This document shows, one piece after another, positions 1 through 40,325 of a stretch of DNA of 64,000 nt (the first letter of the stretch is position 1; each line of letters starts with the position of its first letter). The notes under the pieces were generated by a model. It searched no databases, was not told the DNA's origin, and worked only from the letters and a program-made list of their open reading frames with translations. The stretch is taken from contig PLCN01000024.1 in the NCBI GenBank assembly GCA_003134785.1, positions 69,216 through 133,215 on the forward strand, in the 5' to 3' direction. The position numbers and the translations under genes were made by a program. This DNA is from Spartobacteria bacterium. Lineage in GTDB: Bacteria > Verrucomicrobiota > Verrucomicrobiia > Chthoniobacterales > UBA10450.

Positions 1-3000
1 GGACAAGATGCTTCAGGGTCAGTCCGCCCAGATGGTCTACTTTAACATGGGAAGCACGAACACTGCCTTCGGCGGACACCTTCCTGCGAATGTTGACGGC
101 CCGAATTTGCCTCCAGGGGGCACACCCAGCTACTTCGCGGAAATAGACAGCTCTGCGGATACTGGCTTGGGTAACAACCTGCGAATTTGGAAATTTCACG
201 TTGACTGGGCAACTCCAGCAAACTCGACCTTCGGGAATAATGGGCAACCCAATACCATTACGCAGGTCGACGATTTTGTGCGGCCTAGTTGCACGAACTA
301 CACCGCGGGTTGCGTCCCGCAGTTAGGCGATTCTTTCCAACTGGATCCGATCGGCGATCGCCTGATGGCCCGCGTGGTCTATCGGAGGTTTACCGATCAC
401 GAATCGCTTTTGCTTAATCATACCGTGGTGGCCGATAGCGTAACGGGGCAAATGGGCCCACGCTGGTACGAAGTGCGCGATCCCGGCGGCACGCCAACGA
501 TTTTCCAACAAAGCACGTTGGGACCAAGCAGCCAGACTGATGTCTATCGCTGGATGGGTAGCATCGCGATGGATGGCTCCGGCGATATAGCTATCGGTTA
601 CAGCACTTCCTCCAGCACCACCTTTCCTTCCATCGCCTATTCGGGACGGCTTGTAACCGATACCGGGAGTACGCTAGGACAAGGGGAAGCGCAGATGTTC
701 GCAGGCACCGGTCCGCAGCATGGCGAGGCATTTCCTCCGCAATTCGGCCGATGGGGCGATTACAGCGGGCTAACCGTGGATCCTGCCGATGACTGCACTT
801 TCTGGTACACGACCGAGTATTACGCATTGGCCGATGCTCCCACCGGGAATTGGCACACTCGTATCGGGAGTTTCAAGTTCCCAACATGTGTGGCCGCGAC
901 ACCTATCGCTACGCCGACGCCCACAGCTACACCTGTTTCTACTCCTGCGCCGACAGCTACAGCTACACCTACCCCAACGCCAACGTCTACGCCCTCGGGA
1001 ACTCCGAATCCATGTGGAATTCCGGTGATATATTCGAACACCGGCACCGTCACGATTAACGACAACGCTCCTGCATCACCTTATCCCTCGACCATCGATG
1101 CGACCGTCCAGCCTGGGACAGTGAGTAAGGTCACCGTGGATCTCGTCAGCATAACTCATAATTTTCCGGATGACATTGGCGTGTTGCTCGTCGGTCCTAC
1201 GGGCGTAAAAGTGCGCTTGATGACCGACGCTGGCGGAGGCGGCACAGGCTTTTCTCTAACTGGCGCTACAATGACGTTCGACGACGCTGCGACAACGCCG
1301 GTTCCTGATGAAGGTCCAATCGTTTCGGGAACATCCTACCAACCAACACAAGGCGTAATCAACACTCTCAGCAGCCCGCATCCGGCAGACTTTGCCGCAC
1401 CGGCGCCTGCCTCGCCCTACAGCAACGTGCTCTCGAGCTTTAACGGAACGGATCCCAACGGGACGTGGAAGTTGTTCGTCGACGACGATACGGCGGTTGA
1501 TGGAGGTGTGATCCAAAATGGCTGGTCCATGACCGTTACGACCGTTTGCACAGGGGCAACGCCTACACCTACCGCAACGCCAACAGCTACTCCAAGTGCT
1601 ACTGCAACCCCGACGCCAACACCAATTCCGGGGAGCATAACCTTCAGCCCTAACTACACGACACGTGCACCCTACATCGGCCAGGATGTCGAGCCAAGCG
1701 TTCGCTGCGATAAGTTTGGCAATTGCTACGTTGCTGCGATTCGCGGTGTCCCGGGGGGCACGGACCTTTGGTACTTCGATCTGCGACCCACAATTCCAGA
1801 TCCAGGCAGCCCTGGGAGTTCCATTGCCAATCCAATGTACGACCCGTACATGCGCAATCCGCAATATCGCGGTCAGCCAGACAAGATTGCACCAGTAGAT
1901 TGCACGCAGACCACACCGCCTGCCGCTTGTGACGGCACAGTGGGGGCTGATGGCGGGGGCGACGTGGACATCGCAGTCGGCTTCAATAGCGAGGCTACGG
2001 AAAATCCAAACGCGCCGCCAACCCTGGCCTATGCCAGCCTGGTCGTCGGAAACATCTCGACCCAGAGCTCGACTGATCGCGGCGCAACGTTTATCCAGAA
2101 TCCTGGCGGTAACGTAACTGGTGGCGTGCCCGGAGATGACCGGCAGTGGCTGGAATTTTTCGGTCCCAGTACGGTGTTCCTGTTTTACCGAACGCTGGAG
2201 CCGGCCATCTCGCAAGTTCAGCAGTCGATTGATGGCGGCCTTACTTACGGACCCGCAGCCACCGCCGGAGCCGTCGGTCAGGCAGGTGGAATTGCGGTCG
2301 ATCAGAACAATGGCAACGTCTATATTAGTGGGAGTAATGGCAGCGTCTCCGTAGGTATACCACCCGCCCCCGGCCTGGCGCCCTTGACTTATACCACAAC
2401 GCTTGTCGCGAGCGCGAACGATGCCCACCTCTTCTTCACGGTGAAGGTCGCGCCGGATAGCACCGTCTACGCCTGCTATTCAGATGACCACGATGTTTTT
2501 GTCAAATTTTCAACTGATTTCGGCAGCACCTGGAGCGCCGCTATTCAGATTAGCCATGGGGCGGAGACCAAGACCGCAGTCTTTCCGTGGATGACAACTA
2601 GTCCCGTGTCCGGGACTATTGGTGTGGTTTGGTACGGCAGCGATAAACTTACTACCACAGACGACTCCGCGGATTGGCATGTCTTTTACAATCTCGTGAC
2701 GACCGTTCAAGGCATTGCCGCTTTCCATCAGGCGATAGCAAGCGACCACGTGATTCATGCAGCTAACATCTCCGAGAATGGGTTAGTCGTCGCAGGTGTG
2801 TCGCCGAATCGTAACCTGGCGGATTACTTCCAGGTGGCTTTCGATCCGACCGGTGCCGCCGTCATCGGCTACTGCGACGATCACAACGACCTTAGCGGCC
2901 ATACCTATGTCACGCGCCAGATCAGCGGACCTAGCGCCCTGGGGTCAAACGTCCCGGCGCCGGTGGAAGGCGGTGGTTTGCTACCTCCCCCGAACGAACC

Positions 3001-4936
3001 TCTTCCGAGGGCGGTAGATGTTGGTGGTATTCCAGGGTCACAGGTCACCGACTTCAGGGATGATGTGCGGCTTGGCGGTAATCCCGAACTGGGGGGAACC
3101 GCCGTCCTCGCGGGGGATGATCCGCTCGACATTCTATCTATTTTGTATTCGGCGGAGCCCGTGCCTTTTTCTCTCAACAACGAACGGATGCTTGTCGCTA
3201 CCATGAAGGTTTCGGACATGACGGCTATTCCTCCGAGTTCGAACTGGCGAGCGACCTTTACCGCCAACGCGCCGGATTCCGTTCTTAGTCCGACCAACGA
3301 ATACACTTTTGGCGTTTCTGACCGGGGAGATGGGTTCTTTGTTCGAGCAACGACCGACGCTTCCGGTACCCAAACCTTCATGTACGGGACGGCGAAGAGA
3401 AACTTTAGCGGCGGTATCGACTACGTGGATGTCGGGACGGCGGATTGTGGATTCTTCGACCAAAGCGCAAAAACAATCACGATGAAAGTGACGCTTAGTA
3501 AACTCAACGCGGCCCTACCGTCTGGTCATCCCCCGATTGATGTCGGTTCGGTCCTGGTGGGTCTGCGCGGAAGCACCTTCACCACGGCGGGCTCTGGGGC
3601 GAGCGGCAACAACAAAGCGGACACAGCTCGTGGCGGAACGCAATACACCGTCACGGTTGGCCCATCGACTCCATGCGGACCAGGGCCGACACCAACGCCA
3701 ACGCCTACCCCAACAACCACACCGACGGCGACACCAACTCCGACCGCAACGCCGACTCCGACAGCTACGGCGACTGCGACACCTACGGTCACCCCGACAG
3801 CTACACCAACGGTGACTCCGACGGCTACACCGACAGCCACACCTACGGCCACTCCGACAGTTGCGCCTACAGCTACGCCTACCCCCACGCCAACAGTGGC
3901 GCCCACGGCTACACCTACCGCCACTCCGACCGTTGCGCCCACGGCTACGCCTACCGCCACGCCAACAGTGGCGCCCACGGCTACTCCAACGGTGGCACCA
4001 ACAGCTACTCCAACGGTGGCTCCCACGGCAACGCCGATAGCAACTCCAACACCCACGGCTGCGCCAACCGCCACACCTACGGCTAGCCCGACAGCCACGC
4101 CGGCTGCTACCGCTAGCCCGACGCCGACTGCTAGCCCAACGCCGACAGCTACTCCCACCCCGGCGCAGTTACTGAATATCTCGACCAGAGCGCGAGTTCA
4201 GACCGGCGATAACATCCTCATCGGTGGCTTCATCATCACCGGAGCCGAGTCGAAGAAAGTAATCGTCTTGGCGAAGGGTCCCTCGGTGCCGGTCCCGGGA
4301 AACCTGGCCGATCCTATCCTGGAGCTGCATGATGGCAACGGCGTTCTCATGACCACGAATGACAATTGGAAAGACTCACCGCAAAGGACGGAGATAGAGA
4401 ATAGTGGCTTCGCGCCGTCCAATGACAAGGAATCCGCCATCCTGCAAACACTTTCTCCGGGCAACTACACCGCGACCGTGCGCGGGGTCGGTAACACTAC
4501 GGGCGTTGCTTTGGTGGAGGTATACGATCTGGCCACGACCTCGAACTCCCAGCTGGCTAACATCAGTTCGCGCTGCTTTATCGACACGGCGGACAACGTG
4601 CTCATCGGCGGCTTTATTACCGGCCCGGGTGACAGAGGCGAGACCGCGATCGTGGTCCGCGCGCTAGGTCCGAGCCTGAGCGGCTTCGGAGTGCCGAACG
4701 CTCTGGCTGATCCCACCCTGGAGTTGCACGATCAGAACGGCGCAACGTTCGCGAGCAATGACGATTGGCAGACCGATGCGAACGCGAGCCAGGTGCAAGC
4801 CGCTGGTCTGGCACCTAACGACACGCATGAAAGCGCCATCTATTTCAAGCAAGCGCCATCCAACTTCACCGCGATCGTCCGCGGCAAGAACAACGCCACC
4901 GGAGTCGGCTTGGTGGAGGTCTATAACGTCAAGTAG
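1..4936 (+). CDS. Giant secreted multidomain protein, 5'-partial: sialidase-fold BNR/Asp-box propeller modules, proprotein-convertase P-domain-like module, Thr/Pro linkers, twin C-terminal ~125-aa module
   Basis: ORF 8..4936. The frame stays open to the window edge (GAC AAG precedes the first ATG) and there is no signal peptide, so the true start is probably upstream. Asp-box-like motifs are [18 protein letters not shown] and [10 protein letters not shown] propeller end reads [20 protein letters not shown]. The last ~330 aa are identical to the next gene. Confidence 0.85.
3685..4163 (+). repeat. Low-complexity (ACN CCN)n region encoding a ~160-aa Thr/Pro/Ala linker
   Basis: The translation is [22 protein letters not shown]...TATPTPA. 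The antisense frame gives a spurious GVGVAVG ORF (3526..4158). Confidence 0.9.
3940..4936 (+). repeat. ~1-kb dispersed direct repeat, copy 1 (3' end of gene 1), near-identical to 8640..9639
   Basis: Fixed offset of 4703 nt to copy 2. The encoded proteins are identical from ..[27 protein letters not shown].. to the stop. The left boundary fades into the Thr/Pro linker and is approximate. Confidence 0.85.
4164..4933 (+). other. Twin C-terminal ~125-aa module (copies 1 and 2) of the first giant protein
   Basis: [65 protein letters not shown], followed by [64 protein letters not shown] and the stop. Confidence 0.8.
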
Positions 4937-5028: not shown

Positions 5029-8000
5029 ATGCAAAAGAAATCCAACTCCGAATCCGCGCTTTTCCAACCACGCGTCTTAAGTGCGCTTTTACTTTGTTTT
5101 GCCGGGTTGCTCCTGGCGATGTTCAGCTTCGCGAAGCCGGCTCCGCAGACTGGCGTTGCCCAGGTGTCAGCGAAACAAAGCAACGCGCCGACCCCAGCTG
5201 GTGACACCCTCAGCCCGACCAGCGGACCGCTGACGTTCACGGATAGCACACCGTTGGTCCCAAATCCGACCGGCGAAGGAGTAGGCTTCAGCGCGCCAAC
5301 ATGCGCGGCGAACACCTGCAGCACTTATACCCTCACGCTCGATCCTGCTCTTTTCTTGGTTGCCGGCAGTTACGATCCGGCGCAAAACAACATTGTTATT
5401 CAAATTTCGTGGCCAGTTGCCACGACGCAGTATGGATCGTTCGTGGAGGACGCGAGCGGAAACGTGATTGCGTCGAACACGGCGGGCATCGATCCGGAAA
5501 CAATTACCATTCCGATCACGACCCTGAATCTGCAGGCCAATGGCCCATATACCATTGTCACAACAGTGGAAATCGGCACCGGTCCTTCTATAACTGGAGT
5601 GATCACGCTTGTGCCGCTTTCCGGCCCAGGAACCGTGTGCAGCGGCTGCATTCCCCCGCGCTATCAGATGTACGAAGCGCCTGCCGGCGTTTCCACTCAA
5701 TCAGGCGAACCTTCCATCGGTGTGGATTGGAATCCAAATGTTAGCAGCCTGAAACAAATCGGCCCGGGGACACTAGCGCATGGCCCGACCCTCCTTAACA
5801 CCGGCGGCATAACAATGTTTACAGCTACTTTCGATCAGTATCAGGTGGCGTTCGATGATTGCTCTTCGCCCGCGGTCAACACTTGGACGGATACTGCTTT
5901 CATCGTCCAGCAGACTACTACCCTGGATGCGATCGGATTTACCGATCACTTCACCAGTCTCCCGCTTGGCACCGGTCCTTATAGTCCCGGCAATCCGACG
6001 ACTCCAGGCCGGACCTTCCATGGCCAGCTCACCGCCGGTGATAGTAACACGTCTTACACGGATGATGATGGCGGCAGTCACACCCAGACCCAAGGTGGGG
6101 GCGTGCCCCAAGGTCCCGATCACGAAACGATCGGCGGCGGTCCTTATAATCCTAACTCGACACCGGCTCCACCTCCCAACCTGATTTACCAAAACGCGAT
6201 TTATTATTGCACTCAGAATATCGCGCCGGAAGCGGAGTGCTCCCGCAGTGATGACGGCGGCCTAACGTTTGGTCCGGGCGTTCCTATTTATACTCCGACC
6301 CAATGCACTGGGTCGATTCATGGACACGTGAAGGTGGCGCGCGACGGTACCGTTTACGTGCCGAATTATTCCTGCACTTTGTCAGGCGCAACTCAGGGTG
6401 TCGCTGTTTCGACCGATAACGGCATAACCTGGAACGAGCGCAACGTGCCGGGAAGCGGCAGTCCAAAGCCAGGCCTGGTCGATCCATCGGTAGGAATTGG
6501 TCTCAATGATGTGGGTAACACTAATCCTCCGGGTGGCGCAAATGCCATCTACTTTGGCTACATCGAGAACGATGGCACGCCGAAGATCGCCGTGTCGCAT
6601 GATCGCGGACTCACTTGGTCTACCGCGCAAAATGTGGGAGCTGCCTTTGGGATCGTGAACTCCACTTTCCCGGTGGTGGTGGCGGGAGACGACAACCGCG
6701 CCGCTTTCGGTTTTCTTGGGACTACCACTCCCGGCGATTCATCGTTGAACGCGAACTTCCCCGGAATTTGGCACCTCTACATTGCCACGACGTACGATGC
6801 CGGTGTCTCCTGGGTGACCCTCGACGCCACTCCCGACGACCCCATCCAGGTAGGTCCCGTCTGTAACGGTGGCACGACCTGTCCAACGAAACGAAACCTC
6901 TTGGACTTTAACGGCTTCGATGTGGATAACGAAGGTCGCGCAATACTCGGCCTTTCGGATGGCTGCGTTAATTGCACCAATAGCTCCACTTCGGGCGACT
7001 CCAACGCAGCCCAGGGATTAATCGCACGGCAAGCGGGCGGTCCCAGATTGTTTTCCTTCTTTGATCCTCCCGCGCACGCGGTCCCCGCGGCGCCGCAAGT
7101 TCTCTCAGCCGTGTCTCAACCAACCGGTGTCCTCGTTTCCTGGCTAGAACCCGACAATGGCGGAGATCCTATTACCGCCTACAAGATTTACCAGAGTTCT
7201 ACCAGCGGAAGCGAGACTCTAATCGCAACGGTCAGCAACGATCCGCTGAACAAACACACCAAGTACCTCGATCCGTCAGGGCTCAACACGTCAAACTCCT
7301 TTTATCATGTGACGGCTGTGAACACGAATGGTGAATCGGCCTTCTGCCAGGAGGTCAGCGTCGTTACCGTGGTTGGCACTGGTGACGCGTGCACCTACCC
7401 ATATCTCGGTGTCGCTCCGGCTGGCCACGCCGGCACCGTCCCGGCCGATCCAACGAACGGAGAACTGACCATTCAGTACGTCAATATGGGTGAGCCATTT
7501 ACCAACTGCACGGACAACTCCATCACGTTCCTCATGAAGGTTCAGACGTTAGATCCGGCGGGAACCGGAACCGCCGCTCCGCCACCAAATAGCGAGTATC
7601 AGATTCTTTTCGGGATCATCGATACTCTTGGGAATCCGCAAACGATCTTCGTGGATATGGATACGAATGGCGCGGTGCCAACACCGGAATTCAGCTACGG
7701 GAGACGTGACCCCAGCTCGACCGGCGGGACACTCGACACCACAGTGTGCACGGCCAGCACGACATCGACTTGCCCGGCGATATCGGGAAGCGTTAGTGCG
7801 GACGGAACAATCATCATTAAACTGGATGTTTCAGCTCCGCTCAATTTCCCAGCCCCGACCGCTGGGGCGACAGGTGTCACCTTTGACTGGGACGCCAGCG
7901 CACCTGGCAAAAAGCTGCTGAGTATAACTGGTAATACTATTACTCTAATCGGCGGCGCCGGGACCGGTTTGCTAGAAACTGTCCAGACAACCAGCGGCGG

Positions 8001-9639
8001 CGCCTACACCAGAGTCGGTAACATTTCCTGCGCCGGCCTGATTCCGGTGGCGGAACTCTCCGCTACTCCGAGTGCGGGTCCGTCACCGCTGTTGGTGAAT
8101 TTTGACACTTCGGCTTCGCACGAACCCGCTGGCGCGTGCGGCACGATCAACTCCTACACGCTGGACTTTGGTGATGGGAGCGCGTTCGAGACCAATGCGA
8201 CCGGCGTTTTTTCGCACACCTACACTGCTGACGGCAGCTACCCGGCGCGGCTGACTGTTTCAGATTCGGTTGGTCAGGCAAGCACTAACCAAGCTCAAGC
8301 TGTTATCACCGTGGGAACAGTACCGACACCGACTCCAACACCTACGCCAGGGGCTACAGCGACTCCAACGGCAACACCCACAGCCGCTCCAACAGCCACG
8401 CCAACAGTTGCGCCTACGGCCACACCTACGGCCACGCCAACAGTTGCGCCTACAGCCACACCTACTCCAACACCTACGCCGGGGGCCACAGCGACTCCAA
8501 CGGCAACACCTACAGCCGCTCCGACAGCTACACCAACGGTGACTCCGACGGCTACACCGACAGTTGCGCCAACGGCCACACCTACGGCCACTCCGACAGT
8601 TGCGCCAACGGCTACACCTACCGCCACCCCAACAGTTGCGCCAACGGCTACGCCGACCGCCACGCCAACAGTGGCGCCGACGGCTACTCCAACGGTGGCA
8701 CCAACAGCTACTCCAACGGTGGCTCCCACGGCAACGCCGATAGCAACTCCAACACCCACGGCTGCGCCAACCGCCACACCTACGGCTAGCCCGACGGCCA
8801 CGCCGGCTGCTACCGCTAGCCCAACGCCGACTGCTAGCCCAACGCCAACAGCTACTCCCACCCCGGCGCAGTTACTGAATATCTCGACCAGGGCGCGGGT
8901 TCAGACTGGCGATAACATCCTCATCGGTGGTTTCATCATCACGGGAGCCGAGTCGAAGAAGGTAATCGTGCTGGCGAAGGGTCCCTCGGTGCCCGTTCCG
9001 GGAAACCTGGCCGATCCTATCCTTGAGTTACATGACGGCAACGGCGTTCTCATGACTACGAATGACAATTGGAAAGACTCGCCGCAAAGGACGGAGATAG
9101 AGAACAGCGGCTTCGCGCCGTCCAACGACAAGGAGTCCGCCATCCTGCAGACACTTTCTCCCGGCAACTACACCGCGACGGTGCGCGGGGTCGGTAACAC
9201 TACCGGCGTTGCTTTGGTGGAGGTATACGATCTGGCCACGACCTCGAACTCCCAGCTGGCTAACATCAGTTCACGCTGCTTTATCGACACGGCGGACAAC
9301 GTGCTCATCGGCGGCTTCATTACCGGCCCGGGTGACAGAGGCGAGACCGCGATCGTGGTCCGCGCGCTAGGTCCGAGCCTGAGCGGCTTCGGAGTGCCGA
9401 ACGCTCTGGCTGATCCAACCCTGGAGTTGCACGATCAGAACGGCGCAACGTTCGCGAGCAATGACGATTGGCAGACCGATGCGAACGCGAGCCAGGTGCA
9501 AGCCGCTGGCCTGGCGCCTAACGACACGCACGAAAGCGCCATCTATTTCAAGCAAGCGCCATCCAACTTCACCGCGATCGTCCGTGGCAAGAACAACGCC
9601 ACCGGAGTCGGCTTGGTGGAAGTCTATAATGTTAAGTAA
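5029..9639 (+). CDS. Giant secreted protein: signal peptide, PPC-like N-domain, BNR/Asp-box propeller, FN3, unnamed beta-sandwich, PKD, ~180-aa Thr/Pro linker, twin C-terminal module
   Basis: ATG followed by a hydrophobic signal ([19 protein letters not shown]). Asp-boxes [39 protein letters not shown]3-like [24 protein letters not shown]-like [36 protein letters not shown]. Confidence 0.9.
8321..8866 (+). repeat. Low-complexity region encoding a ~180-aa Thr/Pro/Ala linker with an internal ~130-bp tandem duplication
   Basis: [29 protein letters not shown].. occurs twice (about 8325-8455 and 8456-8585). The antisense ORF 8295..8861 is spurious. Confidence 0.9.
8640..9639 (+). repeat. ~1-kb dispersed direct repeat, copy 2 (3' end of gene 2)
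   Basis: See 3940..4936. About 35 nucleotide differences over the last ~800 nt, counted by eye, all synonymous. Confidence 0.85.
8867..9636 (+). other. Twin C-terminal module of the second giant protein (protein-identical to 4164..4933)
   Basis: The amino-acid sequence is identical to 4164..4933 in the ORF track. Confidence 0.8.
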
Positions 9640-9743
9640 CAGCAGTAATCGTACGACCCGCGCTGCGACCAAGAATAGAAGTCCTATCACGCTATGAAAC
9701 AACAGTCTTCTGCCATAACAGCTCTATTAATCGAAAATCGTAT

Positions 9744-12700
9744 ATGAAAATAAGATCCTTTTCGCTAACCGCTCGCGCCGCCCTCGGCACCCTGCTCTGC
9801 CTAAGCAGCGTGGCGCTATTTTGCGCCATACCATTAAGCCGCACCCGCGCGCAAAGCCCCGCCACAGGTACAGTGGGACCGACCGGTCCCGGGTCCGCTT
9901 GGGATGGCACGATAATCGTACCCGTTGGCGGCGTGGTGAATATGGAGTCTCTCTGCCAGGATGGCGTTAATTGTGAAACTTATACGCTGACCGTCACCGG
10001 GACGCCGGCTCAGTGGGCTGGCAAAAGAGTGCAGGTTTTGTTGACGTGGACCAGCAGTACAAATGAGTACGACATCTACATTCACAAGGGCTCAAACAAT
10101 AACCCGGTGGTTACTTCAGCCGCGGCAGGACCCGGGCTTACAAATCAAGTAGCATACATTAACCCGAGCACGGACGGCGTCGGCGTCTTCACGATCCACG
10201 TGGCTTACGACACGGTGCCGGCCCCGGCCCTGGACCATTACCACGGCACGGCGACCGCAGTGCCCGAAACGCCCGCGCCTCCTCCGCCGGCGCCGCAGGA
10301 TTCAGGGCCCAAGATCGGTTACGAGAATTTCGAGGCCCCCGGCGTTCTGACGCCGGGAACATCGACCAGCTCAGGCGGAGTGACGGTGGAATACATGGGG
10401 CGTGGCGCGGGCGAACCCTCCATCGGCAGTAACTGGGCTACTGGCGTCGCGAACTTTCAGTCGGACTTGGAAACTCTGTTTATCACCTTCGACGACTCGT
10501 GTTCATTAACGAATCCGAAAGCAAGCTGGGTAAACCGCCGGGCTCCTACGTCTGTTTTTATCGACTCTGATCCTATCGGATTCACCGATCGTGGAACTAC
10601 TACAGGCCGCGTCTTTGCCTCCGAGCTCACCCTGCTCGGCCCTAATACCGTCAAGATTTCCCATAGTGACGACGACGGCCTTACCTGGATTGTGGCGCAG
10701 TCCGGCGGCCTCGCATCGGCGGTGGACCACCAGACAATCGGTGGGGGTATTTATCATACGCCGATTCCGTCAGGAGTGAACCCCCTTTACCCGAACGCGC
10801 TTTACTACTGCTCGCAGGATATCGCGGCGGCTTTGTGCTCGAGAAGCGATGATGGCGGAACTACCTACGGCCCTTCCGTCCCAATCTATAACCTGACGGC
10901 ATGCGGCGGCTTGCACGGCCACGTAAAGGTTTCCCCCAAAGACGGAACCGTTTATGTCCCGAACAGGCAGTGCGGTTCGCAATCAGCGGTGGTTGTTTCC
11001 CAAGATAACGGACTAACCTGGACCATCCGGCCTGTGCAAAACGGGTCAGTTTCTGACACCGCTGCCACTGATGATCCGGCTGTAGGTATCGATGACAATG
11101 GTCGTGTCTATTTTCTCTTCGCGAACAACGGCACCGCCGCGGGAGTCGCTACTTCTGACGACTTTGGGGCTACCTGGCAGAACATCGTCGATGTGGGGGT
11201 TCCTTTTCCGTTAAAAAATATCGCCTTCCCAGCCGCCGTTGGCGGCAGTAGCACCGGCGGCAATACCGGCCGCGCCGCGGTCGCCTTCTATGGGTCAGTT
11301 ACGGGCACAGGAGACTCTAACGCAGATACTTTTGCCGGTGTCTGGCACCTCTACATCGCGCACACCTTCGATGGAGGATTAACTTGGACGACCACCGACG
11401 CGACGCCGAATATGCCGATGCAGCGTACCGGTATCTTGCGAGGAGGCGGAGGACCCGTCACGCGGAACCTGCTCGACTTCTTCGATATCACCATCGACCG
11501 GGATGGTCGTGTCCTGGTCGGTTACGTGAACGGTTGCTCGGGTGGCGACTGTGCTCAAGCCCCGATAAATCCGGATGGTTCATCCGGTGTGACCGGAAAC
11601 GCTTACTCCGTGACCGCGACGATCGCGCGGCAGTCCAGCGGCCGAAGGATGCTTGCCAGCAAGTCAACGCCTACTACTTCCGCGCCAGGAATGCCATTCG
11701 TCACTCAACGGCGAATCGGTCCTGTCGTCCATCTGGCGTGGAGCGAAGCGGATACCGGAAACTCGCCCATCACGGGCTATCAAATATTGAGGGGCACCGC
11801 GAGCGGCGGAGAGACCCTCCTGACGACCGTGCCAGGAACTCAAACGGGTGGGACCTTTGATGACTCAACGGCCACCGACATCACCAAGACTTATTACTAT
11901 AAGGTGCTGGCGGTAAATGGCACTACAGCTCCGCTCGGAGCATCATGTGCTAACAATGAAATTGCTGCTCCCTATGTGGGCGAGCCATGCGGTAAAATGA
12001 TCATTCACACGAACGATCCGACCCATCCCGAAGCGCTTGGAGGTAGTGCGATGCAGCCGCCTACGCCTCAACTTCTCATTGACTATGTTGCGGTCGGCGA
12101 GCCGCCGTCGAGGCCGGGCGTTCTCATGTTCCAGATGAAAGTAGGTGATCTTTCGACCGTTCCACCGAACAGCAGATGGAGAATGGTCTGGGATTCGCCC
12201 GCTTCTCCAGACGAACAGTATTACGTCGGCATGACGACCGACGGAACTAGCACTGTCACCTTTGAGTACGGCACGCTCCAAACCGCATCCCTCGTCGTGC
12301 TCGGCGTTCCCACGGAAATACCGGCGGCCGGACCGCCTGATCCCGCGAGCAACTTCAACGCCGATGGCACAATCACGATTTTCCTGGCGAAATCCGCGAT
12401 TGGAAATCCTCAACCGGGAGATCTGCTCGGGGCGGTGAACGGAAGGACATTCGATACCGGGGATAGCCCTCCTATGACCTTGGAGCGCTCGAACCTGTTA
12501 GTAGATCATACTTTCGTCAAAGGAAATACCGACAATAGCTATCCTGCTGCCACCTACACAGTGGTCGGCAATGTCCCTTGCGGAGCAATACCGAACACAC
12601 GGCCCACGGCTGATCTGAAGGCCAACCCAACATCGGGGAACGCGCCACTGAGCGTGACCTTCGACGGCACTGGCTCATTCGATCCGGATTTTAGTGATAC

Positions 12701-13793
12701 GATTGCCAGTTACACCTTCAAGTTCGGCGACGGCAGTGCTGACGTCACCCAGGCCTCGCCTGTCGTTCAGCACACCTACGTCAGCGCGGGAATCTACGCC
12801 GCGCAATTAGTCGTGACCGACTCACGTGGAGCACAGAGCACAAATACGGCCGAGCAAGTGATTACGGTAACGCCGGCGACGACGCCTACACCTACTCCTA
12901 CTCCGGGAGGAACACCTACACCTACTCCGGGAGGAACGCCTACTCCTACTCCAGCGGGAACAGCTACTCCGACGCCTACGCCATCGCCCCAACCCACGCC
13001 CGCTAACATCCAGCTAGTAAACATTTCGGGCCGTGTCTTTGTTCAAGGTGGCGATAACGTCGGAATCGGTGGTTTCATCATTACTGGTTCAGGCACGAAG
13101 CGCATCATAGCTCGTGGCATGGGACCGTCCGTGAAAGTTAATGGCAACCCTGTTCCAGGAAGCTTGCAAGATCCAGTGCTCGAGCTCCACGACAGCAACG
13201 GAGGTGTCATCACCAACGATAACTGGCGCAGTACGCAGGAGGCCGAAATCCAGCAAACCGGCCTGGCGCCAGCTGACGACCACGAAGCCGCCATCGTGAA
13301 AAGGCTGCCTGCGGGCACTTACACCGCTGTGGTTCGCAGCGCCGATGGCAGTCCGGGTGTTGGTTTGGTAGAGCTATACGACCTGAGCACCGCTGACCCC
13401 GGCGAGCTGGGCAATCTGTCCGTTCGCGCTTCGGTTCAAACCGATGACAATGTTCTCATCGATGGCTTGATCCTGCAGGGCGGAGACCCAAAGCGCGTTC
13501 TCTTTCGCGCGCTCGGTCCATCGGTGCAGGTCAACGGCGCACCTGTCCCCGGCGCGTTGCAGGATCCGACGCTCGAGCTGCATGATGGGAATGGCGCGCT
13601 TCTCCTTAGCAATGATAACTGGAAAGATGCGCCGAATGCAGCGGACATCCAGGCGACCGGGTTAGCTCCTGGCGATGATAAAGAATCCGCGATCCTGATG
13701 ACGCTCGCACCGGGGAATTACACGACGGTGGTGCGTGGCGTGAATCGGACGACGGGCATCGGACTGGCCGAAGCGTACAAGCTGGATAATTAG
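9744..13793 (+). CDS. Giant secreted protein, paralog of 5029..9639: signal peptide, PPC-like N-domain, BNR/Asp-box propeller, FN3, beta-sandwich, PKD, Thr/Pro linker, twin C-terminal module
   Basis: Signal LGTLLCLSSVALFCAIPLS. Asp-boxes SHSDDDGLTW, SRSDDGGTTY, VSQDNGLTW, TSDDFGATW, HTFDGGLTW. It shares [19 protein letters not shown] with [18 protein letters not shown] of the previous gene. FN3 VVHLAWSEADTGNSPITGYQILRG. PKD LSVTFDGTGSFDPD..YTFKFGDGS..HTYVSAGIYAAQLVVTD. Confidence 0.9.
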   Translation: MKIRSFSLTARAALGTLLCLSSVALFCAIPLSRTRAQSPATGTVGPTGPGSAWDGTIIVPVGGVVNMESLCQDGVNCETYTLTVTGTPAQWAGKRVQVLLTWTSSTNEYDIYIHKGSNNNPVVTSAAAGPGLTNQVAYINPSTDGVGVFTIHVAYDTVPAPALDHYHGTATAVPETPAPPPPAPQDSGPKIGYENFEAPGVLTPGTSTSSGGVTVEYMGRGAGEPSIGSNWATGVANFQSDLETLFITFDDSCSLTNPKASWVNRRAPTSVFIDSDPIGFTDRGTTTGRVFASELTLLGPNTVKISHSDDDGLTWIVAQSGGLASAVDHQTIGGGIYHTPIPSGVNPLYPNALYYCSQDIAAALCSRSDDGGTTYGPSVPIYNLTACGGLHGHVKVSPKDGTVYVPNRQCGSQSAVVVSQDNGLTWTIRPVQNGSVSDTAATDDPAVGIDDNGRVYFLFANNGTAAGVATSDDFGATWQNIVDVGVPFPLKNIAFPAAVGGSSTGGNTGRAAVAFYGSVTGTGDSNADTFAGVWHLYIAHTFDGGLTWTTTDATPNMPMQRTGILRGGGGPVTRNLLDFFDITIDRDGRVLVGYVNGCSGGDCAQAPINPDGSSGVTGNAYSVTATIARQSSGRRMLASKSTPTTSAPGMPFVTQRRIGPVVHLAWSEADTGNSPITGYQILRGTASGGETLLTTVPGTQTGGTFDDSTATDITKTYYYKVLAVNGTTAPLGASCANNEIAAPYVGEPCGKMIIHTNDPTHPEALGGSAMQPPTPQLLIDYVAVGEPPSRPGVLMFQMKVGDLSTVPPNSRWRMVWDSPASPDEQYYVGMTTDGTSTVTFEYGTLQTASLVVLGVPTEIPAAGPPDPASNFNADGTITIFLAKSAIGNPQPGDLLGAVNGRTFDTGDSPPMTLERSNLLVDHTFVKGNTDNSYPAATYTVVGNVPCGAIPNTRPTADLKANPTSGNAPLSVTFDGTGSFDPDFSDTIASYTFKFGDGSADVTQASPVVQHTYVSAGIYAAQLVVTDSRGAQSTNTAEQVITVTPATTPTPTPTPGGTPTPTPGGTPTPTPAGTATPTPTPSPQPTPANIQLVNISGRVFVQGGDNVGIGGFIITGSGTKRIIARGMGPSVKVNGNPVPGSLQDPVLELHDSNGGVITNDNWRSTQEAEIQQTGLAPADDHEAAIVKRLPAGTYTAVVRSADGSPGVGLVELYDLSTADPGELGNLSVRASVQTDDNVLIDGLILQGGDPKRVLFRALGPSVQVNGAPVPGALQDPTLELHDGNGALLLSNDNWKDAPNAADIQATGLAPGDDKESAILMTLAPGNYTTVVRGVNRTTGIGLAEAYKLDN
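12868..13002 (+). repeat. Short Thr/Pro/Gly linker with a GGTPTPTP duplication
   Basis: [44 protein letters not shown]. Confidence 0.85.
13003..13790 (+). other. Twin C-terminal module of the third giant protein (diverged copy)
   Basis: [64 protein letters not shown], followed by [66 protein letters not shown]. Confidence 0.8.
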
Positions 13794-24476: not shown

Positions 24477-24896
24477 TTATTTCAAGCGCCCTTCGTCGAA
24501 TTCGATGAGGTCGAAGTAGGTGCGAATATCTTTGCGGCCTTCGCCGCCGGCTTCTTTGAGGAAGTGGATGAAGCGCGCCTTTTTCGCGGCGGTATCCGGA
24601 CAGCGCGAAATCATGGCCTCATTCCAATGTTCGATCGCATCGGCCGAATGCGCGGTGCCATTTTTCGAAATCCAATCGAGAATCCCGGCGTCGTCATCGA
24701 GGCGGTTGGCCGCTTCTTCAAACGCGTCCGGGTTCAACTTCAGAAAGGCCAGGAGATGTTTGTCGAACCCGACGGTTTTGTAATTGTAGCCGTCAAGCAA
24801 GCCTTTGCGATGGAGCTTCGCCTTGTCGATCAAACGCGGCAGATGCACGTAACCGCCCAGCCGGTCGTACGGACTGCGTGGACGCAGCTTTTGCAT
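24477..24896 (-). CDS. DUF5069-like protein
   Basis: RSPYDRLGGYVHLPRLIDKAKLH matches my memory of DUF5069 N-termini. It is the last gene of the minus-strand run. Confidence 0.75.
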   Translation of the reverse strand: MQKLRPRSPYDRLGGYVHLPRLIDKAKLHRKGLLDGYNYKTVGFDKHLLAFLKLNPDAFEEAANRLDDDAGILDWISKNGTAHSADAIEHWNEAMISRCPDTAAKKARFIHFLKEAGGEGRKDIRTYFDLIEFDEGRLK

Positions 24897-24907
24897 TCAG
24901 CCCCGAA

Positions 24908-25765
24908 CTAAGTCGCGGGCAATGGATGCGGCACCACGTCCGGCGGGATCACATCCGCGCCTGCGTCCGAAGCAGCAGCGATTGGCTTCGACTCCGGCAG
25001 CAGCTCAGCTTGAGTGAGTCCGGCGTTGCCAATGACCAACTGGCCGGAAAAGATGCCGCCTTTCTCCACGGAAATCGATTTCGCGGTCACGTTTCCATCG
25101 AGCATCGCGTGGCGATGAATGACCACCGCGCCCTCCGCGATGATCTCCCCCGTCATCCGCCCGCGAATCTCGATGCTCTTGACTCGAAGGCGCCGGAAAA
25201 ATTGCACATCGGATTTTTTCTCGACCAGGACCCGTTCCGCTGTGAGCCGTCCGGGAATTTTGCCGGTGAAATTTATCGTCGCCGTTCCGACGCAATTCAT
25301 GTTGCCGCGCATTTTCCCTTCGATCAACGCAGTCCGGCAAGTCACGCTGCTGCTGCTGAGATCTCCTTTCGCGGTGACGTGAATCTCGCCGTGAGTTTTG
25401 ATCGAGCGGCTGAAGCTTGTGACTACCTTGTAATCGCGCAGATCGATGTGCGTGCTGCACTTCGGACAAAATGTGGACGAGGCGGCGGAGCTGATTTCCT
25501 GCTTCGCCTTGCAATCGAAGCATTCGATCTCCGAGTTGTGATGCTTCGTCCAATAGCCTTCCAGTTTTCGGAAAAGCGACGGATCGGCCACCGCCTCGAC
25601 CGGCTCGTCCTTGGGCCGGAGACGCACTTCCATCTTCGGCGCGGAAGGCGCGAAATGAGCGCCGCATTGGCGGCACATCGTGCTCTTCGCCGCAGCATAT
25701 TCCATCTGCTTAAAGCCACAATGCGGACAATCCACATTGACTTTAGCAGGCGACGGCTTGGCCAC
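24908..25765 (-). CDS. Bactofilin with two N-terminal zinc-ribbon motifs
   Basis: CPHCGF..CRQCGAHF and CFDCKA..CPKCSTHI, followed by bactofilin-type beta-helix repeats (IEGKMRGNMNCVGTATINFTGKIPG..IRGRMTGEIIAEGAVVIHRHAMLDGNVTAKSISVEKGGIFSGQLVIG). Confidence 0.8.
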   Translation of the reverse strand: MAKPSPAKVNVDCPHCGFKQMEYAAAKSTMCRQCGAHFAPSAPKMEVRLRPKDEPVEAVADPSLFRKLEGYWTKHHNSEIECFDCKAKQEISSAASSTFCPKCSTHIDLRDYKVVTSFSRSIKTHGEIHVTAKGDLSSSSVTCRTALIEGKMRGNMNCVGTATINFTGKIPGRLTAERVLVEKKSDVQFFRRLRVKSIEIRGRMTGEIIAEGAVVIHRHAMLDGNVTAKSISVEKGGIFSGQLVIGNAGLTQAELLPESKPIAAASDAGADVIPPDVVPHPLPAT

Positions 25766-25789
25766 TGGTGGCGTTGGACAGGTAGCGGC

Positions 25790-26359
25790 TTAAACGCGGG
25801 CGCCGAAAGCCGACTTGGCTGGGGGCGTCGCCGGCTCTTCGTTCCGAACGATCTCTGGTTTCGCGGCCGGGGTGGCGCCTTTGCTGGCGCCGCCGCTGGT
25901 CACTTCGGATTTGCCGATAAAAGTAGCGCCCTCTTCGATCACGAGCCGCGCTGCTTTCAAGTCGCCCTGCAGCGTGCAACGCGATTTCAGCTCGCAACGT
26001 TCGCCCACGGTGATGTTCCCCTGAACCTTGCCGTAAACCGTAATCGATTTGGTTTTGATCTCGCCGCGGATGTCCGCGTTCTCACCGATGGTGAGGACGC
26101 CGTCGGAATTGATCTCCCCTTCGACTTTGCCGTCGATGAGCAATTCCTTTTGAAATTTGATGGAGCCCTTAATCTCGACGTCGCTCGAGAGGATGTCTTT
26201 GCCAGAATGTTCAGCCATATATTTTTGTGGATCGATTGTTGGTGGTGATGTTCGGGGTTGTTCGCGCTGAGCGAGCCCGTTGTTCTCATCAGTGCCCGCG
26301 CTTAACGATCCTTCTCCGATCGACGACAGGGGCTTCTGCGGGATGAATTTTTTCAGCAC
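25790..26359 (-). CDS. Bactofilin
   Basis: SSDVEIKGSIKFQKELLIDGKVEGEINSDGVLTIGENADIRGEIKTKSITVYGKVQGNITVGERCELKSRCTLQGDLKAARLVIEEGATFIGK. The start could instead be the internal MAEHSGK. Confidence 0.85.
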   Translation of the reverse strand: MLKKFIPQKPLSSIGEGSLSAGTDENNGLAQREQPRTSPPTIDPQKYMAEHSGKDILSSDVEIKGSIKFQKELLIDGKVEGEINSDGVLTIGENADIRGEIKTKSITVYGKVQGNITVGERCELKSRCTLQGDLKAARLVIEEGATFIGKSEVTSGGASKGATPAAKPEIVRNEEPATPPAKSAFGARV

Positions 26360-26390: not shown

Positions 26391-27992
26391 TCAATGGCTT
26401 ACCGAGGGAAAGTCATCTTTTTCCGCGGAAAGCTGGACGTGAAACACTTTGCAGGCCGTGTTTTGGGAGACGAGGTGAAGGAATTGGGGCGCCTGGCTCG
26501 GGGTGCGATCGAGCACGCGGCCGAGGGGATTTTCAGGCGGTGGCAGGCCGAGAATAGCGGGTGAATTGGCCAGGGTGCGGTCTGCGTCGTACACCAACAC
26601 CCAGGCGACCTTGCTCTTGAGCAGGAGCTCGCGCCCCGTTTCTGCGTCCGATGCGAGGAAGAAACGCGCGCTGCGTGCGATTCCATCCAGCGATTCGTGC
26701 GAAGAGCCCGCCACACCGGGCTGGCCCGACCAATAGGCGACTGCGGGCGACCACCACCACGGTGCGAGGAAAGCGGCCTCGGCCTTGCCAGCAAGCGCGG
26801 TTGCGGCGGCCCGACATTGCACGGCTTCGAGGCGGCGTTCCAAGTGAAGAGTGTTTTCAGACTCGTTAGGCCAAAGGCTTGCGTCCCAATCCAACATGAT
26901 CGGGCACAGCGAAACAACGATGGCGACCCACGCGATGGTGCGACTCTTGACCACTTTGAGCAGCGCGGGCAAAGCCACAGCAAAAATCGCGACAAAGAAA
27001 TAAGCCCAACGCGCCTGCCAAGCCGTGAGAACAAACGTCGTCATCAACAACGCCGCCAGGAAAATGGGAACCGCAAAAGTTCTCCGCACCGCGATCCAAA
27101 GAAGGGCTGGCAACGGAATGAGCAGCAGCCCAGCCCAGCGAAGCCAGATCGGATCATCGAGCGGCACGTGCTTCAGCTCGCCGATCGTCGCCGCCCAATT
27201 CGTTCGAATCGGATCTGATCCGAAACGCGGCCAGCTCGGCAGCCGCTGTTCGATCAACAATCCCAGCACGGTGATTATCCCGAGCACAGCCCAGCCAATC
27301 CGACGATGCCTCGCCGTAAAATTTTGATGAGCAAAGACAGCGTGAGAAAGAAGGACCACCAATAGCAGAACCGGCGGTTCGTAAAGCGAAACCCACAACG
27401 CCAGACCCCACGCCGCGCCATTCACCGCGCTCCATCCGCGCGATGCTTCCGTTTGCAACGTCCATTCGGAACAAACGGCGACGATCAAAAGCAGAATTAG
27501 AAACGACTGATGATCCGGCCGGCCCAGTTCCATTCCATGCACGAGGATTGGACTCACCGCGTAGATCAGCAGAAGCGCGCCCCGATATCGCAGTTTGCTT
27601 CGCCGCGCCCACCACCACAAAAACCAACCCGCCAGCAAACCGAGCAGCGGCGAAATAATTGCGCCCGCCAGATCGAGCGCTCGAGCCGTAAACGGCTTGA
27701 GCATTTCCGCCACTGCGACGATGAGATAATCAAACGGCGCGGTCGTGTGCGGTGTCGTCCCAGCGGGAAAATTCTCGAACGAATGATGCCGAACGACGAG
27801 CCCCGGATGTTCCAGACACATGCGCGCGCGCGTCATGCGCGAATAACAATCGGCGTCGGAAAAGTAGATGTCGCCCCCAACGAAAACGTCCTGATAATTC
27901 GCGCACCTCGCCGCGAGAATGAGCGCGCTGAAAACCAGGAACTCGACGACGAGAGTCGTCGCGCGCACTGCACGACGAAGCGAAGGATTCAA
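26391..27992 (-). CDS. Polytopic GT-C glycosyltransferase, STT3/AglB/PglB-like (divergent oligosaccharyltransferase homolog)
   Basis: More than 10 hydrophobic segments. Loop-1 FSDADCYSRMTRARM..FENFPAGTTPHTTAPFDYLIV, loop-2 ELGRPDHQS, C-terminal APWWWSPAVAYWSGQPGVA in place of WWDYG. The ORF-track start (28064) overlaps the tRNA, so I place the start at the TTG at 27992. The start is uncertain. Confidence 0.6.
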   Translation of the reverse strand: MNPSLRRAVRATTLVVEFLVFSALILAARCANYQDVFVGGDIYFSDADCYSRMTRARMCLEHPGLVVRHHSFENFPAGTTPHTTAPFDYLIVAVAEMLKPFTARALDLAGAIISPLLGLLAGWFLWWWARRSKLRYRGALLLIYAVSPILVHGMELGRPDHQSFLILLLIVAVCSEWTLQTEASRGWSAVNGAAWGLALWVSLYEPPVLLLVVLLSHAVFAHQNFTARHRRIGWAVLGIITVLGLLIEQRLPSWPRFGSDPIRTNWAATIGELKHVPLDDPIWLRWAGLLLIPLPALLWIAVRRTFAVPIFLAALLMTTFVLTAWQARWAYFFVAIFAVALPALLKVVKSRTIAWVAIVVSLCPIMLDWDASLWPNESENTLHLERRLEAVQCRAAATALAGKAEAAFLAPWWWSPAVAYWSGQPGVAGSSHESLDGIARSARFFLASDAETGRELLLKSKVAWVLVYDADRTLANSPAILGLPPPENPLGRVLDRTPSQAPQFLHLVSQNTACKVFHVQLSAEKDDFPSVSH

Positions 27993-28033
27993 TCTGTGGG
28001 GATTCTTTTCATTCCGAAATCCGAAATCGCAGC

Positions 28034-28106
<73 letters not shown>

Positions 28107-38847: not shown

Positions 38848-39708
38848 TCATTTCTCCGGATCAATCTTCACCCGACTTCTGTGAATGAAACCCGCTTTGT
38901 TCGGACCCAGGATTATGTGAACCCAATCGCCTTGCATCCCGGCAACCTCGACCCGCTCGCCGTCCCTCACTACGCCAATGATCTTGGCGTGAAGGAAAGG
39001 TTGTTCGCGCACGTTCGTGATTCCGTCGGGATCGTGCACAACACCATACACTGCTCGATGTACGGGGCCGGGCGGAGGAGTCGACACTTGGAGCGCAGGG
39101 CTCGGCGATAAGGTTGTCGGAGGCGTGGAAACGGATTGAGGCGTTGGCGAAGGGAGATCCGGCGCATTCTCATCTTCCGATCCATTGGCAGACTCGTGGA
39201 TCGGGCGGCCGGTCGCGGGCCGCAGGCCTTTCATGCTATCGATGCGCCAGGCGGCCGATTCAAAAACAAATTCGATCGGTCCTTGCCACCGCGCCTGCCG
39301 AGATGCCGGATCGGTATCCTCGAAAACCGCCGTGACGCTGGCGGTGCGTTCGCTCTTGGAGACCATCGTAGCTTCCACCACCTTCACCGGCGGCGTGGTA
39401 CCGATGGTCCGGGAATATTTTACGATCGAGAGACGCCGGCGAAAATCCGCCGATAGGAGATTGTAGGCCGCGGTCGCATTGCGCTTATTTAGCAAAGCAA
39501 AATAGCGTTGCGTCACCGCCACTGGCGCTTCGGTCTGGTCGATCTGCGCGGTGGCCGTTGTAACCGGAGTTGCGACGGGCGCGACCGTCGCGCTCGCGGC
39601 GACTTCGCTTTTCGGAGTGCTCTGGAATCGCGCTGGATTCTTTGAGATGAGAAACCAGATCAGCGCGACAACCACTGCCAGCAAGACCACGACGCCAACC
39701 CAAAGCAA
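38848..39708 (-). CDS. Membrane-anchored protein: N-terminal TM, NTF2/DUF4878-like domain, Pro-rich linker, C-terminal bacterial SH3
   Basis: TM LWVGVVVLLAVVVALIWFLI (TTG start). VTQRYFALLNKRNATAAYNLLSADF..WRIDS. SH3b-like GITNVREQPFLHAKIIGVVRDGERVEVAGMQGDWVHIIL..GFIHRSRV. Confidence 0.7.
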   Translation of the reverse strand: MLWVGVVVLLAVVVALIWFLISKNPARFQSTPKSEVAASATVAPVATPVTTATAQIDQTEAPVAVTQRYFALLNKRNATAAYNLLSADFRRRLSIVKYSRTIGTTPPVKVVEATMVSKSERTASVTAVFEDTDPASRQARWQGPIEFVFESAAWRIDSMKGLRPATGRPIHESANGSEDENAPDLPSPTPQSVSTPPTTLSPSPALQVSTPPPGPVHRAVYGVVHDPDGITNVREQPFLHAKIIGVVRDGERVEVAGMQGDWVHIILGPNKAGFIHRSRVKIDPEK

Positions 39709-39807: not shown

Positions 39808-40200
39808 TCAGGCGGCAATTTGTTCCGCCGCTTTGACTACGGATCGGTCGCGCGAATCGCCCGTTACGGAAAGCCAGTGAACAGTAGCGAGAAGGTAGTC
39901 GAGGCTTTTTGATGGCGTCGATTCATCGAAACGAACCGGAACGATGTTGAGGCCAAACTTCAACGCGCGCTCGACCTCGCGCAGGACGTGCGAGGAGACA
40001 TTGGAGTGTTCGCTGTAAATCAGCACGAAGCAGTTCGCGCTCTCAATCGCGTTAAGCAGCGCCTCCGCGTAAGAACCGCCCGGCGGCACGTCCCTGGGGG
40101 CAACCCAACAAGGGACACCACGCTCCTCCAGCGCCTTCACGAGCGAATCGGCGGCGGCCGAATCTTCGTGGGAGTGGCTTACGAAAACGTGGCTACTCAT
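39808..40200 (-). CDS. Stand-alone TIR-domain protein (130 aa)
   Basis: HVFVSHSHEDSAAADSLVKALEERGVPCWVAPRDVPPGGSYAEALLNAIESANCFVLIYSEHSNVSSHVLREVERAL is a TIR_2-type pattern that includes the conserved Glu. The ATG at 40200 is preceded by GGGGGAGA. Confidence 0.8.
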   Translation of the reverse strand: MSSHVFVSHSHEDSAAADSLVKALEERGVPCWVAPRDVPPGGSYAEALLNAIESANCFVLIYSEHSNVSSHVLREVERALKFGLNIVPVRFDESTPSKSLDYLLATVHWLSVTGDSRDRSVVKAAEQIAA

Positions 40201-40325
40201 CCGTCTCCCCCATTCGCTGAGGTCTAACAAAGCTCAAGCTCGAGACCAGCTTTTATTGATCGCGCGCCTCTTGGCGTCGGACCAATGCGTGCGATATCTT
40301 ACTCTTTCCCCGAACCAACTCGCTA

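Follow-up and report, generated by a model that had tools for sequence, protein, structure and literature searches.

A paired jelly-roll tail on diverse secreted proteins of Chthoniobacterales, probably a remote branch of the PPC/collagen-binding group

Why should several secreted proteins encoded within one stretch of bacterial DNA all end in the same pair of domains, and what might such a pair do for its carriers? The question is raised by a stretch of 64,000 nucleotides (hereafter the window) from a Spartobacteria bacterium (assembly GCA_003134785.1, contig PLCN01000024.1, positions 69,216 to 133,215), in which four open reading frames (ORFs) of the + strand, here called P1 to P4, terminate in a tandem of modules of ~125 residues. 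An earlier note on this DNA had described the pair, could not place it in a named family, and proposed for it a role in docking, glycan binding or export. Our analysis indicates that the pair is a single unit, a didomain of predicted beta-sandwich fold that marks a very large un-named protein family, and that this family is probably related to the pre-peptidase C-terminal (PPC) and collagen-binding domains. As to its role, we favour, with about even confidence, a portable non-catalytic device for binding or anchoring.

The translations of the four carriers display the pair in every case; the Thr/Pro linker said to precede it throughout is found in the three giant proteins and is missing from the peptidase P4. 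P1 (positions 2-4936; ORF 8-4936, open to nucleotide 2, its 5' end being cut by the start of the window) is a giant secreted protein with Asp-box motifs, a weak P-domain match and three Pro/Thr linkers, one of which, of ~162 residues (3677-4162), leads into module 1 (4163-4534) and module 2 (4547-4933). P2 (5029-9639) combines a signal peptide, a BNR-like head, PKD, a Pro/Thr linker (8299-8865) and modules at 8866-9237 and 9250-9636. P3 (9744-13793) repeats this order with a short Pro/Thr/Gly linker (12858-12989) and modules at 13011-13388 and 13404-13790, and P4 (40326-43496) comprises a signal peptide, a Peptidase_S8 head and modules at 42729-43097 and 43113-43493. Read in frame, the didomains span 4163-4933, 8866-9636, about 13005-13790 and about 42726-43493, so that the tails were located correctly before, with starts 1-2 nucleotides out of frame. 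In all four proteins the stop codon lies 1-3 residues past the last motif and beta-strand (the ends read VEVYNVK in P1 and P2, AEAYKLDN in P3 and VEVYDLQ in P4). As had been noted, no transmembrane helix, PEP-CTERM, LPXTG or other sorting motif follows the tail in these translations, and none of P1-P4 ends in a short sorting signal made of a motif, a hydrophobic helix and a basic tail.

The modules share an ordered set of motifs, namely N-I-S-x, RAxGPS, DPxLELHD, NDNW with an invariant Trp, ESAI, PGNYTAxVRG and GVxLVEVY, in agreement with the consensus drawn up earlier. When all six reading frames of the window are searched with a profile built on the distinct modules, exactly eight copies are recovered, at 190-206 bits each, and these amount to six distinct sequences, as had been claimed, the tails of P1 and P2 being the same in protein. 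Modules of different proteins are 48-59% identical, with a mean column identity of 66% in the alignment of the six. The same alignment bears out, for P1/P2 and for P4, the shorter loop after GPS that had been reported for module 1, and the modules of P1 represent the position-1 and position-2 types, respectively.

The heads in front of this tail are far less alike. Those of P2 and P3 are paralogues with 33% identity, that of P1 is weakly similar to P3, and that of P4 matches none of them. Signal-peptide-like N-termini are present in P2, P3 and P4. The description of the three giants as BNR propellers has a basis in sub-threshold BNR_2 matches for P2 and P3, and for P1 in Asp-box motifs only. 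In the N-terminal part of P1 (window 8-1600) there are two more internal Pro/Thr linkers (residues 295-333 and 515-545), flanking the weak match to a proprotein-convertase P-domain (residues 374-410). This makes P1 a protein of many modules; its N-terminal region, cut by the window, has not been assigned to a family.

To what fold does the tail belong? AlphaFold2 models were built from an alignment of 120 sequences and compared with the PDB using Foldseek. The didomain was modelled with a pLDDT of 94.4 and a pTM of 0.88, and a single module (P1 module 1) with values of 92.2 and 0.86. Each module is predicted to form a beta-sandwich of the jelly-roll type, with eight main beta-strands and one short helix, and in the model the tail is an autonomous didomain, its two jelly rolls packed in a fixed geometry across a junction of ~3 residues. 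The top matches of the single module have a TMq of 0.55-0.58, a TMt of 0.60-0.70, a root-mean-square deviation (rmsd) of 3.3-3.8 Å and a probability of 1.00. They include the collagen-binding domain (CBD) s3b of ColG (1nqj; TMq 0.55, TMt 0.70, rmsd 3.4 Å, 13% identity), and further matches are the PPC domain of a B. anthracis collagenase (5sv5), the jelly roll of the subtilisin Tk-SP (9ues) and the ColH CBD (3jqw). Lower in the ranking stand the C-terminal domain of the C. perfringens enterotoxin and GOLD domains, and carbohydrate-binding module (CBM)-like domains of glucanotransferases are also matched, more weakly. The module as modelled is superposable on solved PPC and CBD structures, a likeness at the level of the fold. 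For the didomain the top match is the tandem CBD s3a-s3b of ColG (5iku; E 2.4e-8), followed by the two-lobed N-terminal domain of DeCLIC; the TM-score of 0.31 and rmsd of 17 Å to 5iku imply that the inter-domain geometry is unlike that of ColG.

Sequence comparisons yield a fainter signal in the same direction. Pfam and NCBIfam matches of the window carriers are confined to the heads (Peptidase_S8, PKD, a weak BNR_2 and P_proprotein), and the six window modules scanned alone find no Pfam match even at E<=10. The P1 didomain scanned whole matches only GBD_IRG7_N (PF23623, galactose-binding-like; E 0.046, 14.3 bits), a family that 39 of 120 relatives match at E<=0.1, the best of them (P0030, 27.0 bits) lying exactly at its cut-off of 27 bits. 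PPC (PF04151) is matched below threshold by 24 of the 120 relatives, with a best E of 6.9e-4, and its gathering score of 25.9 bits is reached by no window module and by none of the 120 relatives. In P0030, the one relative for which match coordinates were taken, the PPC match (16.7 bits) covers profile positions 27-69 of 70 and falls in the C-terminal two-thirds of the module. No Pfam match to Dockerin_1 was found in the window proteins or modules, and none to Por_Secre_tail (PF18962) in the window proteins; a single relative scores 14.9 bits with the latter (E 0.033), short of its cut-off of 27. Searches of PDB sequences with the tail, by phmmer and by profile, gave no genuine match; a profile match to the WD40 protein 2ymu proved to be an artefact, the sum of thirteen stretches of 1-3 bits.

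A direct comparison of the module profile with ColG s3b by hhalign returned a probability of 0.7% and aligned only the 'L.PG.Y' strand, the target being a single ColG sequence rather than a broad PPC profile. A word-indexed search with ColG s3a and s3b for gathering PPC sequences recovered one protein, and the PDB supplied only ColG, ColH and B. anthracis relatives. With this comparison not significant, and made against a single ColG sequence, homology is therefore probable and unproven. We conclude that the tail family is probably homologous to the PPC/CBD group of galactose-binding-domain-like sandwiches, as a remote branch of it. The loose resemblance to PPC suggested by the earlier note is right for the part from DPxLELHD through ESAI and PGNYTAIVRG to LVEVY, given the Foldseek and sub-threshold PPC matches, and the N-terminal third, from NISTR to RAIGPS, is an addition. 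That note had held that its reading would be overturned by a confident match to a characterised domain of known role, ordinary PPC and CBM families being its examples; what we find is the same fold class without family membership.

The module was also correctly described as unassigned: besides the lack of a Pfam, NCBIfam or PDB sequence match, the window proteins carry public names such as 'hypothetical protein' or 'PKD repeat protein', and relatives take their names from the heads they carry, 'immunoglobulin-like domain-containing protein' and 'sugar lactone lactonase' being two examples. The precomputed Pfam annotation of P4 gives Peptidase_S8 only, and we found no paper on the module in Verrucomicrobia.

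Among the closest known systems is ColG of Hathewaya histolytica, a secreted enzyme that likewise carries two consecutive beta-sandwiches of ~115-125 residues at its very C-terminus. Its CBDs are the best structural match of the pair and of the single module alike, and they share with the module the strand logic of 'L.PG.Y' followed by V. The tail described here differs from them in showing no sequence-level match, in the relative orientation of its modules, in its additional conserved N-terminal part, in being attached to many heads that are not proteases and in its hosts, which are Verrucomicrobiota and not Firmicutes; furthermore, collagen is an implausible ligand in soil. PPC domains too are C-terminal, can be tandem and occur on secreted peptidases such as P4. 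In contrast to them, the present family never reaches the Pfam cut-off, is paired as a rule with position-specific types, and serves a wider range of heads.

How widespread is this tail? When 1.84 billion cluster representatives (clusters at 50% identity) were searched exhaustively with HMMER, relatives turned up in 18,505 clusters for a limit of E<=1e-3 and in 9,063 for one of E<=1e-30. A scan restricted to one genome per species confirmed more than 575 stretches, and 79 distinct loci were kept from the best 80 hits. Since this list was ranked by similarity to a Chthoniobacterales-like query, the taxonomic range holds only within that ranking: 77 of the 79 loci come from metagenome-assembled genomes (MAGs) of Chthoniobacterales, 'Spartobacteria' or Verrucomicrobiota, and on this view the family is concentrated in the Chthoniobacterales of soil. 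Carriers were also seen under other labels, on a 3.5-kb 'Hyphomicrobiaceae' contig (JANLYB010000142.1, locus L008), on a 769-kb contig of an 'Actinomycetota' MAG (CAWHHB010000015.1, locus L062) with many frameshift-like fragments of carrier genes, and, as a four-module relative (P0148, XOV89508.1), in a 5.85-Mb 'Pseudomonadota bacterium' MAG; these could reflect mis-binning, mislabelling or real spread. The window organism itself recurs in metagenomes of several sources, one of the samples being labelled WOOD18, and a tblastn search of a plasmid collection gave no match. Carriers are dense, with four in the 64-kb window and 146 carrier ORFs in the 79 loci, 32 of which contain more than one.

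A further observation concerns gene prediction. The first list of homologues consisted mostly of truncated gene calls of ~220 residues, and architectures were therefore taken from the exhaustive search of representatives. Very many family entries (among P0001-P0120) are 'hypothetical proteins' of this length whose annotated start is a Met or Val within module 1, and one ORF of a related contig (L086, 1523-2194) stays open upstream through a Pro/Thr linker into a head. Gene callers therefore seem to truncate carriers at the Pro/Thr linker, which leaves thousands of ~220-residue stubs and distorts both censuses and annotation.

Pairing is close to universal. Among the 150 best representatives, 116 contain two modules, 24 four and eight three, with one protein each having five and six. 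Within the pairs inspected the junction is usually 3 residues, nearly always 2-7 and in one instance 13, and what lies between pairs is a Pro/Thr linker or another domain. First and second modules are distinct types: after training on one half of the pairs, profiles assigned 110 of 116 held-out modules to the correct position. The didomain, rather than the module, is therefore the ancient unit, and the earlier view that it moves as a unit is upheld by its position-specific types, its pairing and the movement of cassettes described below.

The heads of the relatives are as varied as the family is large. They include PKD, He_PIG, Peptidase_S8, Astacin, M23, Laminin_G_3, the DUF5122 propeller, BNR_2, Beta_helix, GSDH, Abhydrolase_10, Copper-bind, CHRD and Calx-beta; S8, Astacin and M23 occur in P4 or in some of the relatives, and most heads are not peptidases. 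A crude test for a basic and hydrophobic, signal-peptide-like N-terminus was positive for 91 of 119 full-length relatives, and the carriers are overwhelmingly what the earlier note took them for, secreted proteins with varied heads.

This range of heads bears on the possibility that the tail is a CBM of no established class, directing enzymes to one particular environmental polysaccharide. The succession of catalytic head, Pro/Thr linker and beta-sandwich tail is the classic design of glycoside hydrolases, and the sub-threshold galactose-binding-like matches, the weaker Foldseek matches to CBM-like domains and the invariant Trp of the NDNW loop would all suit such a role. We nevertheless consider it quite unlikely, as many heads are not carbohydrate-active (S8, astacin, M23, cupredoxin, CHRD-DUF1800, Calx-beta and Ig-like arrays) and the best structural matches are protein-binding PPC and CBD domains. 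Dockerin and CBM tails share with the present family the plan of a variable head, a Pro/Thr linker and a conserved non-catalytic tail recurring in the secreted proteins of one organism; here, however, the heads are not mainly glycoside hydrolases, and the predicted all-beta sandwich is unrelated to the EF-hand pair of dockerins.

Not every carrier has a head. At least seven representatives consist of a signal peptide, a pair, a Pro/Thr linker and a second pair, with no further domain, and in three others (P0121, P0128 and P0132) a pair stands on both sides of the cargo. Such head-less and pair-cargo-pair forms suit a multivalent binder, and not a tag or a chaperone. They also speak to the idea that the tail is an intramolecular Ca2+-binding stabiliser or folding aid for its head, with no external ligand. 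The C-terminal beta-jelly roll of Tk-SP subtilisin is reported to stabilise or chaperone the head to which it is attached. Its structures (9ues, 3afg) rank with the best Foldseek matches, and P4 is itself an S8 subtilase; moreover the conserved Asp, Asn and Glu residues of the loops (DP.LEL.D, NDNW and ES) could conceivably form metal sites. We regard this explanation as very improbable, in view of the near-identical tail on dozens of unrelated folds, the long flexible Pro/Thr linkers between tail and head, which rule out a packed interface, the existence of head-less proteins, and the apparent exchange of heads by linker-didomain cassettes.

The position of the pair within its carriers raises a third alternative. 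About 135 of the 150 best relatives (~90%) end 0-3 residues after the last strand of the tail. The question posed earlier, whether the module is always paired and always C-terminal, is thus answered by near-universal pairing and by a C-terminal placement that is usual and not obligatory. A conserved family of ~940 residues, seen at ten loci and in P0224, has the order signal peptide, pair, CHRD and DUF1800 (L011 5902-8706, L046 5905-8736 and eight similar loci), and in P0163 the pair is internal, between DUF642 and Laminin_G_3. The gene that follows the CHRD-DUF1800 carrier has a DUF1501-type look and a twin-arginine signal, as judged by reading its sequence with no domain search, and through this family the didomain is connected with DUF1800 and DUF1501, a pair of which little is understood.

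The prevalent C-terminal location would be expected of a folded secretion or sorting signal, read by an outer-membrane machine for export or attachment and thereafter cleaved or covalently attached, either in the manner of a type II secretion system that reads a folded signal or as an analogue of the C-terminal domain (CTD) system of the type IX secretion system (T9SS). One tail on very diverse cargo, its strong conservation across unrelated proteins and the density of carriers noted above would fit such a machine as well, and there is a precedent of sorts in PPC, the 'pre-peptidase C-terminal' domain, which in protease E495 is trimmed after secretion (PMC3327674). The N-terminal, internal and both-end pairs argue against it, as do head-less two-pair proteins, which have no cargo to deliver, the want of a usable Por_Secre_tail match, of a sorting motif or transmembrane segment after the tail, and of a dedicated processing gene near the carriers. 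On balance we judge a sorting signal unlikely. The T9SS CTD (PF18962) of Bacteroidota is similar in being a beta-sandwich that ends many unrelated secreted proteins of one lineage; the tail of these Verrucomicrobiota differs from it in giving no meaningful profile match, in being paired instead of single and in occurring also N-terminally, internally and alone.

The neighbourhoods of the carriers add to this picture. No family of neighbours is shared by more than 12 of the 79 related loci, and hence no dedicated partner or processing gene emerges; nor was a cohesin-like scaffold found among the neighbours in these loci. A conserved partner or scaffold gene, which the earlier note had proposed to look for, was thus not found in the window or in the related loci. 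The recurrent neighbours are a 2-oxoacid dehydrogenase, a DUF1501-like protein, a C39-ABC exporter and GcvH (named from sequence reading with no domain search), and they look like a reflection of synteny rather than of partnership.

Which reading accounts best for these observations? We propose, with a confidence near the midpoint, that the didomain is a portable unit without catalytic activity that serves for binding or anchoring in the style of PPC and collagen-binding domains, which would tether diverse exported heads to one common target. The proposal suits a conserved pair on unrelated heads, flexible linkers and a C-terminal preference that is not obligatory; it also suits the multi-pair and pair-only proteins, the absence of a sorting motif and the lack of a dedicated neighbour gene. 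Among the roles put forward earlier, binding or docking fits best, and a pure C-terminal export tag is a poor fit to the N-terminal, internal, bookend and head-less forms. Precedents exist in PPC domains, which bind protein substrates, that of protease E495 through conserved polar and aromatic residues (PMC3327674), and in the PPC domains of ColG and ColH, which are collagen-binding and non-catalytic (PMC6168687).

In the proposed scheme the carrier would be exported via Sec, and the didomain would then bind or anchor, holding whichever head is fused to it (peptidase, BNR-like propeller, lectin-like, Ig-like or redox) on a common insoluble target, with the Pro/Thr linker giving reach. The tandem CBDs of ColG and the PPC domains of marine proteases operate in this manner. 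Candidate targets are a polymer of the cell envelope or matrix, or a widespread environmental polymer. The binding function, a single target for all carriers and a possible dependence on Ca2+ are what we infer; the fold, the pairing, the size of the family, the diversity of heads, the flexibility of position and the signal peptides are direct results of the comparisons given above.

Several points weigh against this proposal. No candidate for a receptor or scaffold was found near the carriers; homology of the didomain to PPC is not established at the sequence level, the hhalign comparison with ColG being a case in point; and both its very high conservation over unrelated heads and its predominance at C-termini are also compatible with recognition or processing by a machine rather than attachment to a polymer.

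The manner in which the tail spreads among heads can be glimpsed from L086, a related metagenome contig with 86% nucleotide identity to the window. Here a P2-type head is joined to a P3-type PKD-linker-didomain, whereas the P2-type head of the window has a P1-type linker-didomain. Positions 2287-6861 of L086 correspond to window 5029-8297 plus 12592-13793, and the 4.3 kb from window 8297 to 12592 are absent. The fusion is either a cassette exchange, a deletion between neighbouring paralogues or an assembly chimera, and it appears that cassettes of linker plus didomain swap between heads.

The tails of P1 and P2 pose a separate puzzle. The last 349 codons of the two genes (window 3887-4933 and 8590-9636), comprising 92 linker and 257 didomain codons, encode identical protein; 33 didomain codons and roughly 15 linker codons nevertheless differ, and all the differences are synonymous. 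For comparison, the orthologous tail of L086 differs from that of window P1 at 52 codons, eight of them replacing an amino acid, and the linkers differ at about half of the aligned positions. At the ratio seen in L086, the chance of no replacement among 33 changed codons is about 0.004. The second gene of L086 has a P3-type tail, so a P1/P2 comparison within that contig does not arise. Neither simple gene conversion, which would have erased the synonymous differences as well, nor ordinary purifying selection explains the pattern; unusually strong selection for identity and a strain-mosaic assembly are possible causes.

The neighbours of the carriers in the window are housekeeping genes (Iso_dh, PGI, an NtrC-type regulator, GlnD, cytochrome bd, AcrB/HlyD, malate synthase and GDH). 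Among these genes lie two long ORFs with no Pfam match at E<=1e-3, of 456 residues (24878-26248, + strand) and 557 residues (26391-28064, - strand). Directly upstream of the S8 peptidase gene, and divergent from it, is a gene for a small TIR-domain protein of about 130-140 residues (39808-40230, - strand), which adjoins a gene for an SH3_3-domain protein (38848-39708, - strand).

What was already known of this tail is its fold class and its design principle; the new elements are the very large family without a name, its distinctive N-terminal extension, its near-universal pairing with position-specific types and its use on a broad secretome throughout a lineage. A Pfam or NCBIfam model could come straight from the present alignments, and since the didomain marks more than 18,000 clusters it offers a simple handle for annotating the Chthoniobacterales secretome. 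It is at the same time a compact, confidently modelled, putative binding scaffold for ligand hunting. Chthoniobacterales are among the dominant, mostly uncultured bacteria of soil, and we know of no account of how they deploy extracellular enzymes; retention of enzymes at the cell surface or in a matrix is a testable idea that the didomain suggests. In a stronger form, which we hold to be unlikely, the didomain would serve as an address label in a lineage-specific system by which Chthoniobacterales display proteins at the surface or assemble a matrix. Each genome would then dock dozens of its secreted enzymes on one receptor of the envelope or matrix, with the head-less double pairs as cross-linkers. 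If true, such a system would be a new functional analogue of dockerin-cohesin or of the T9SS CTD, built on a PPC-like fold.

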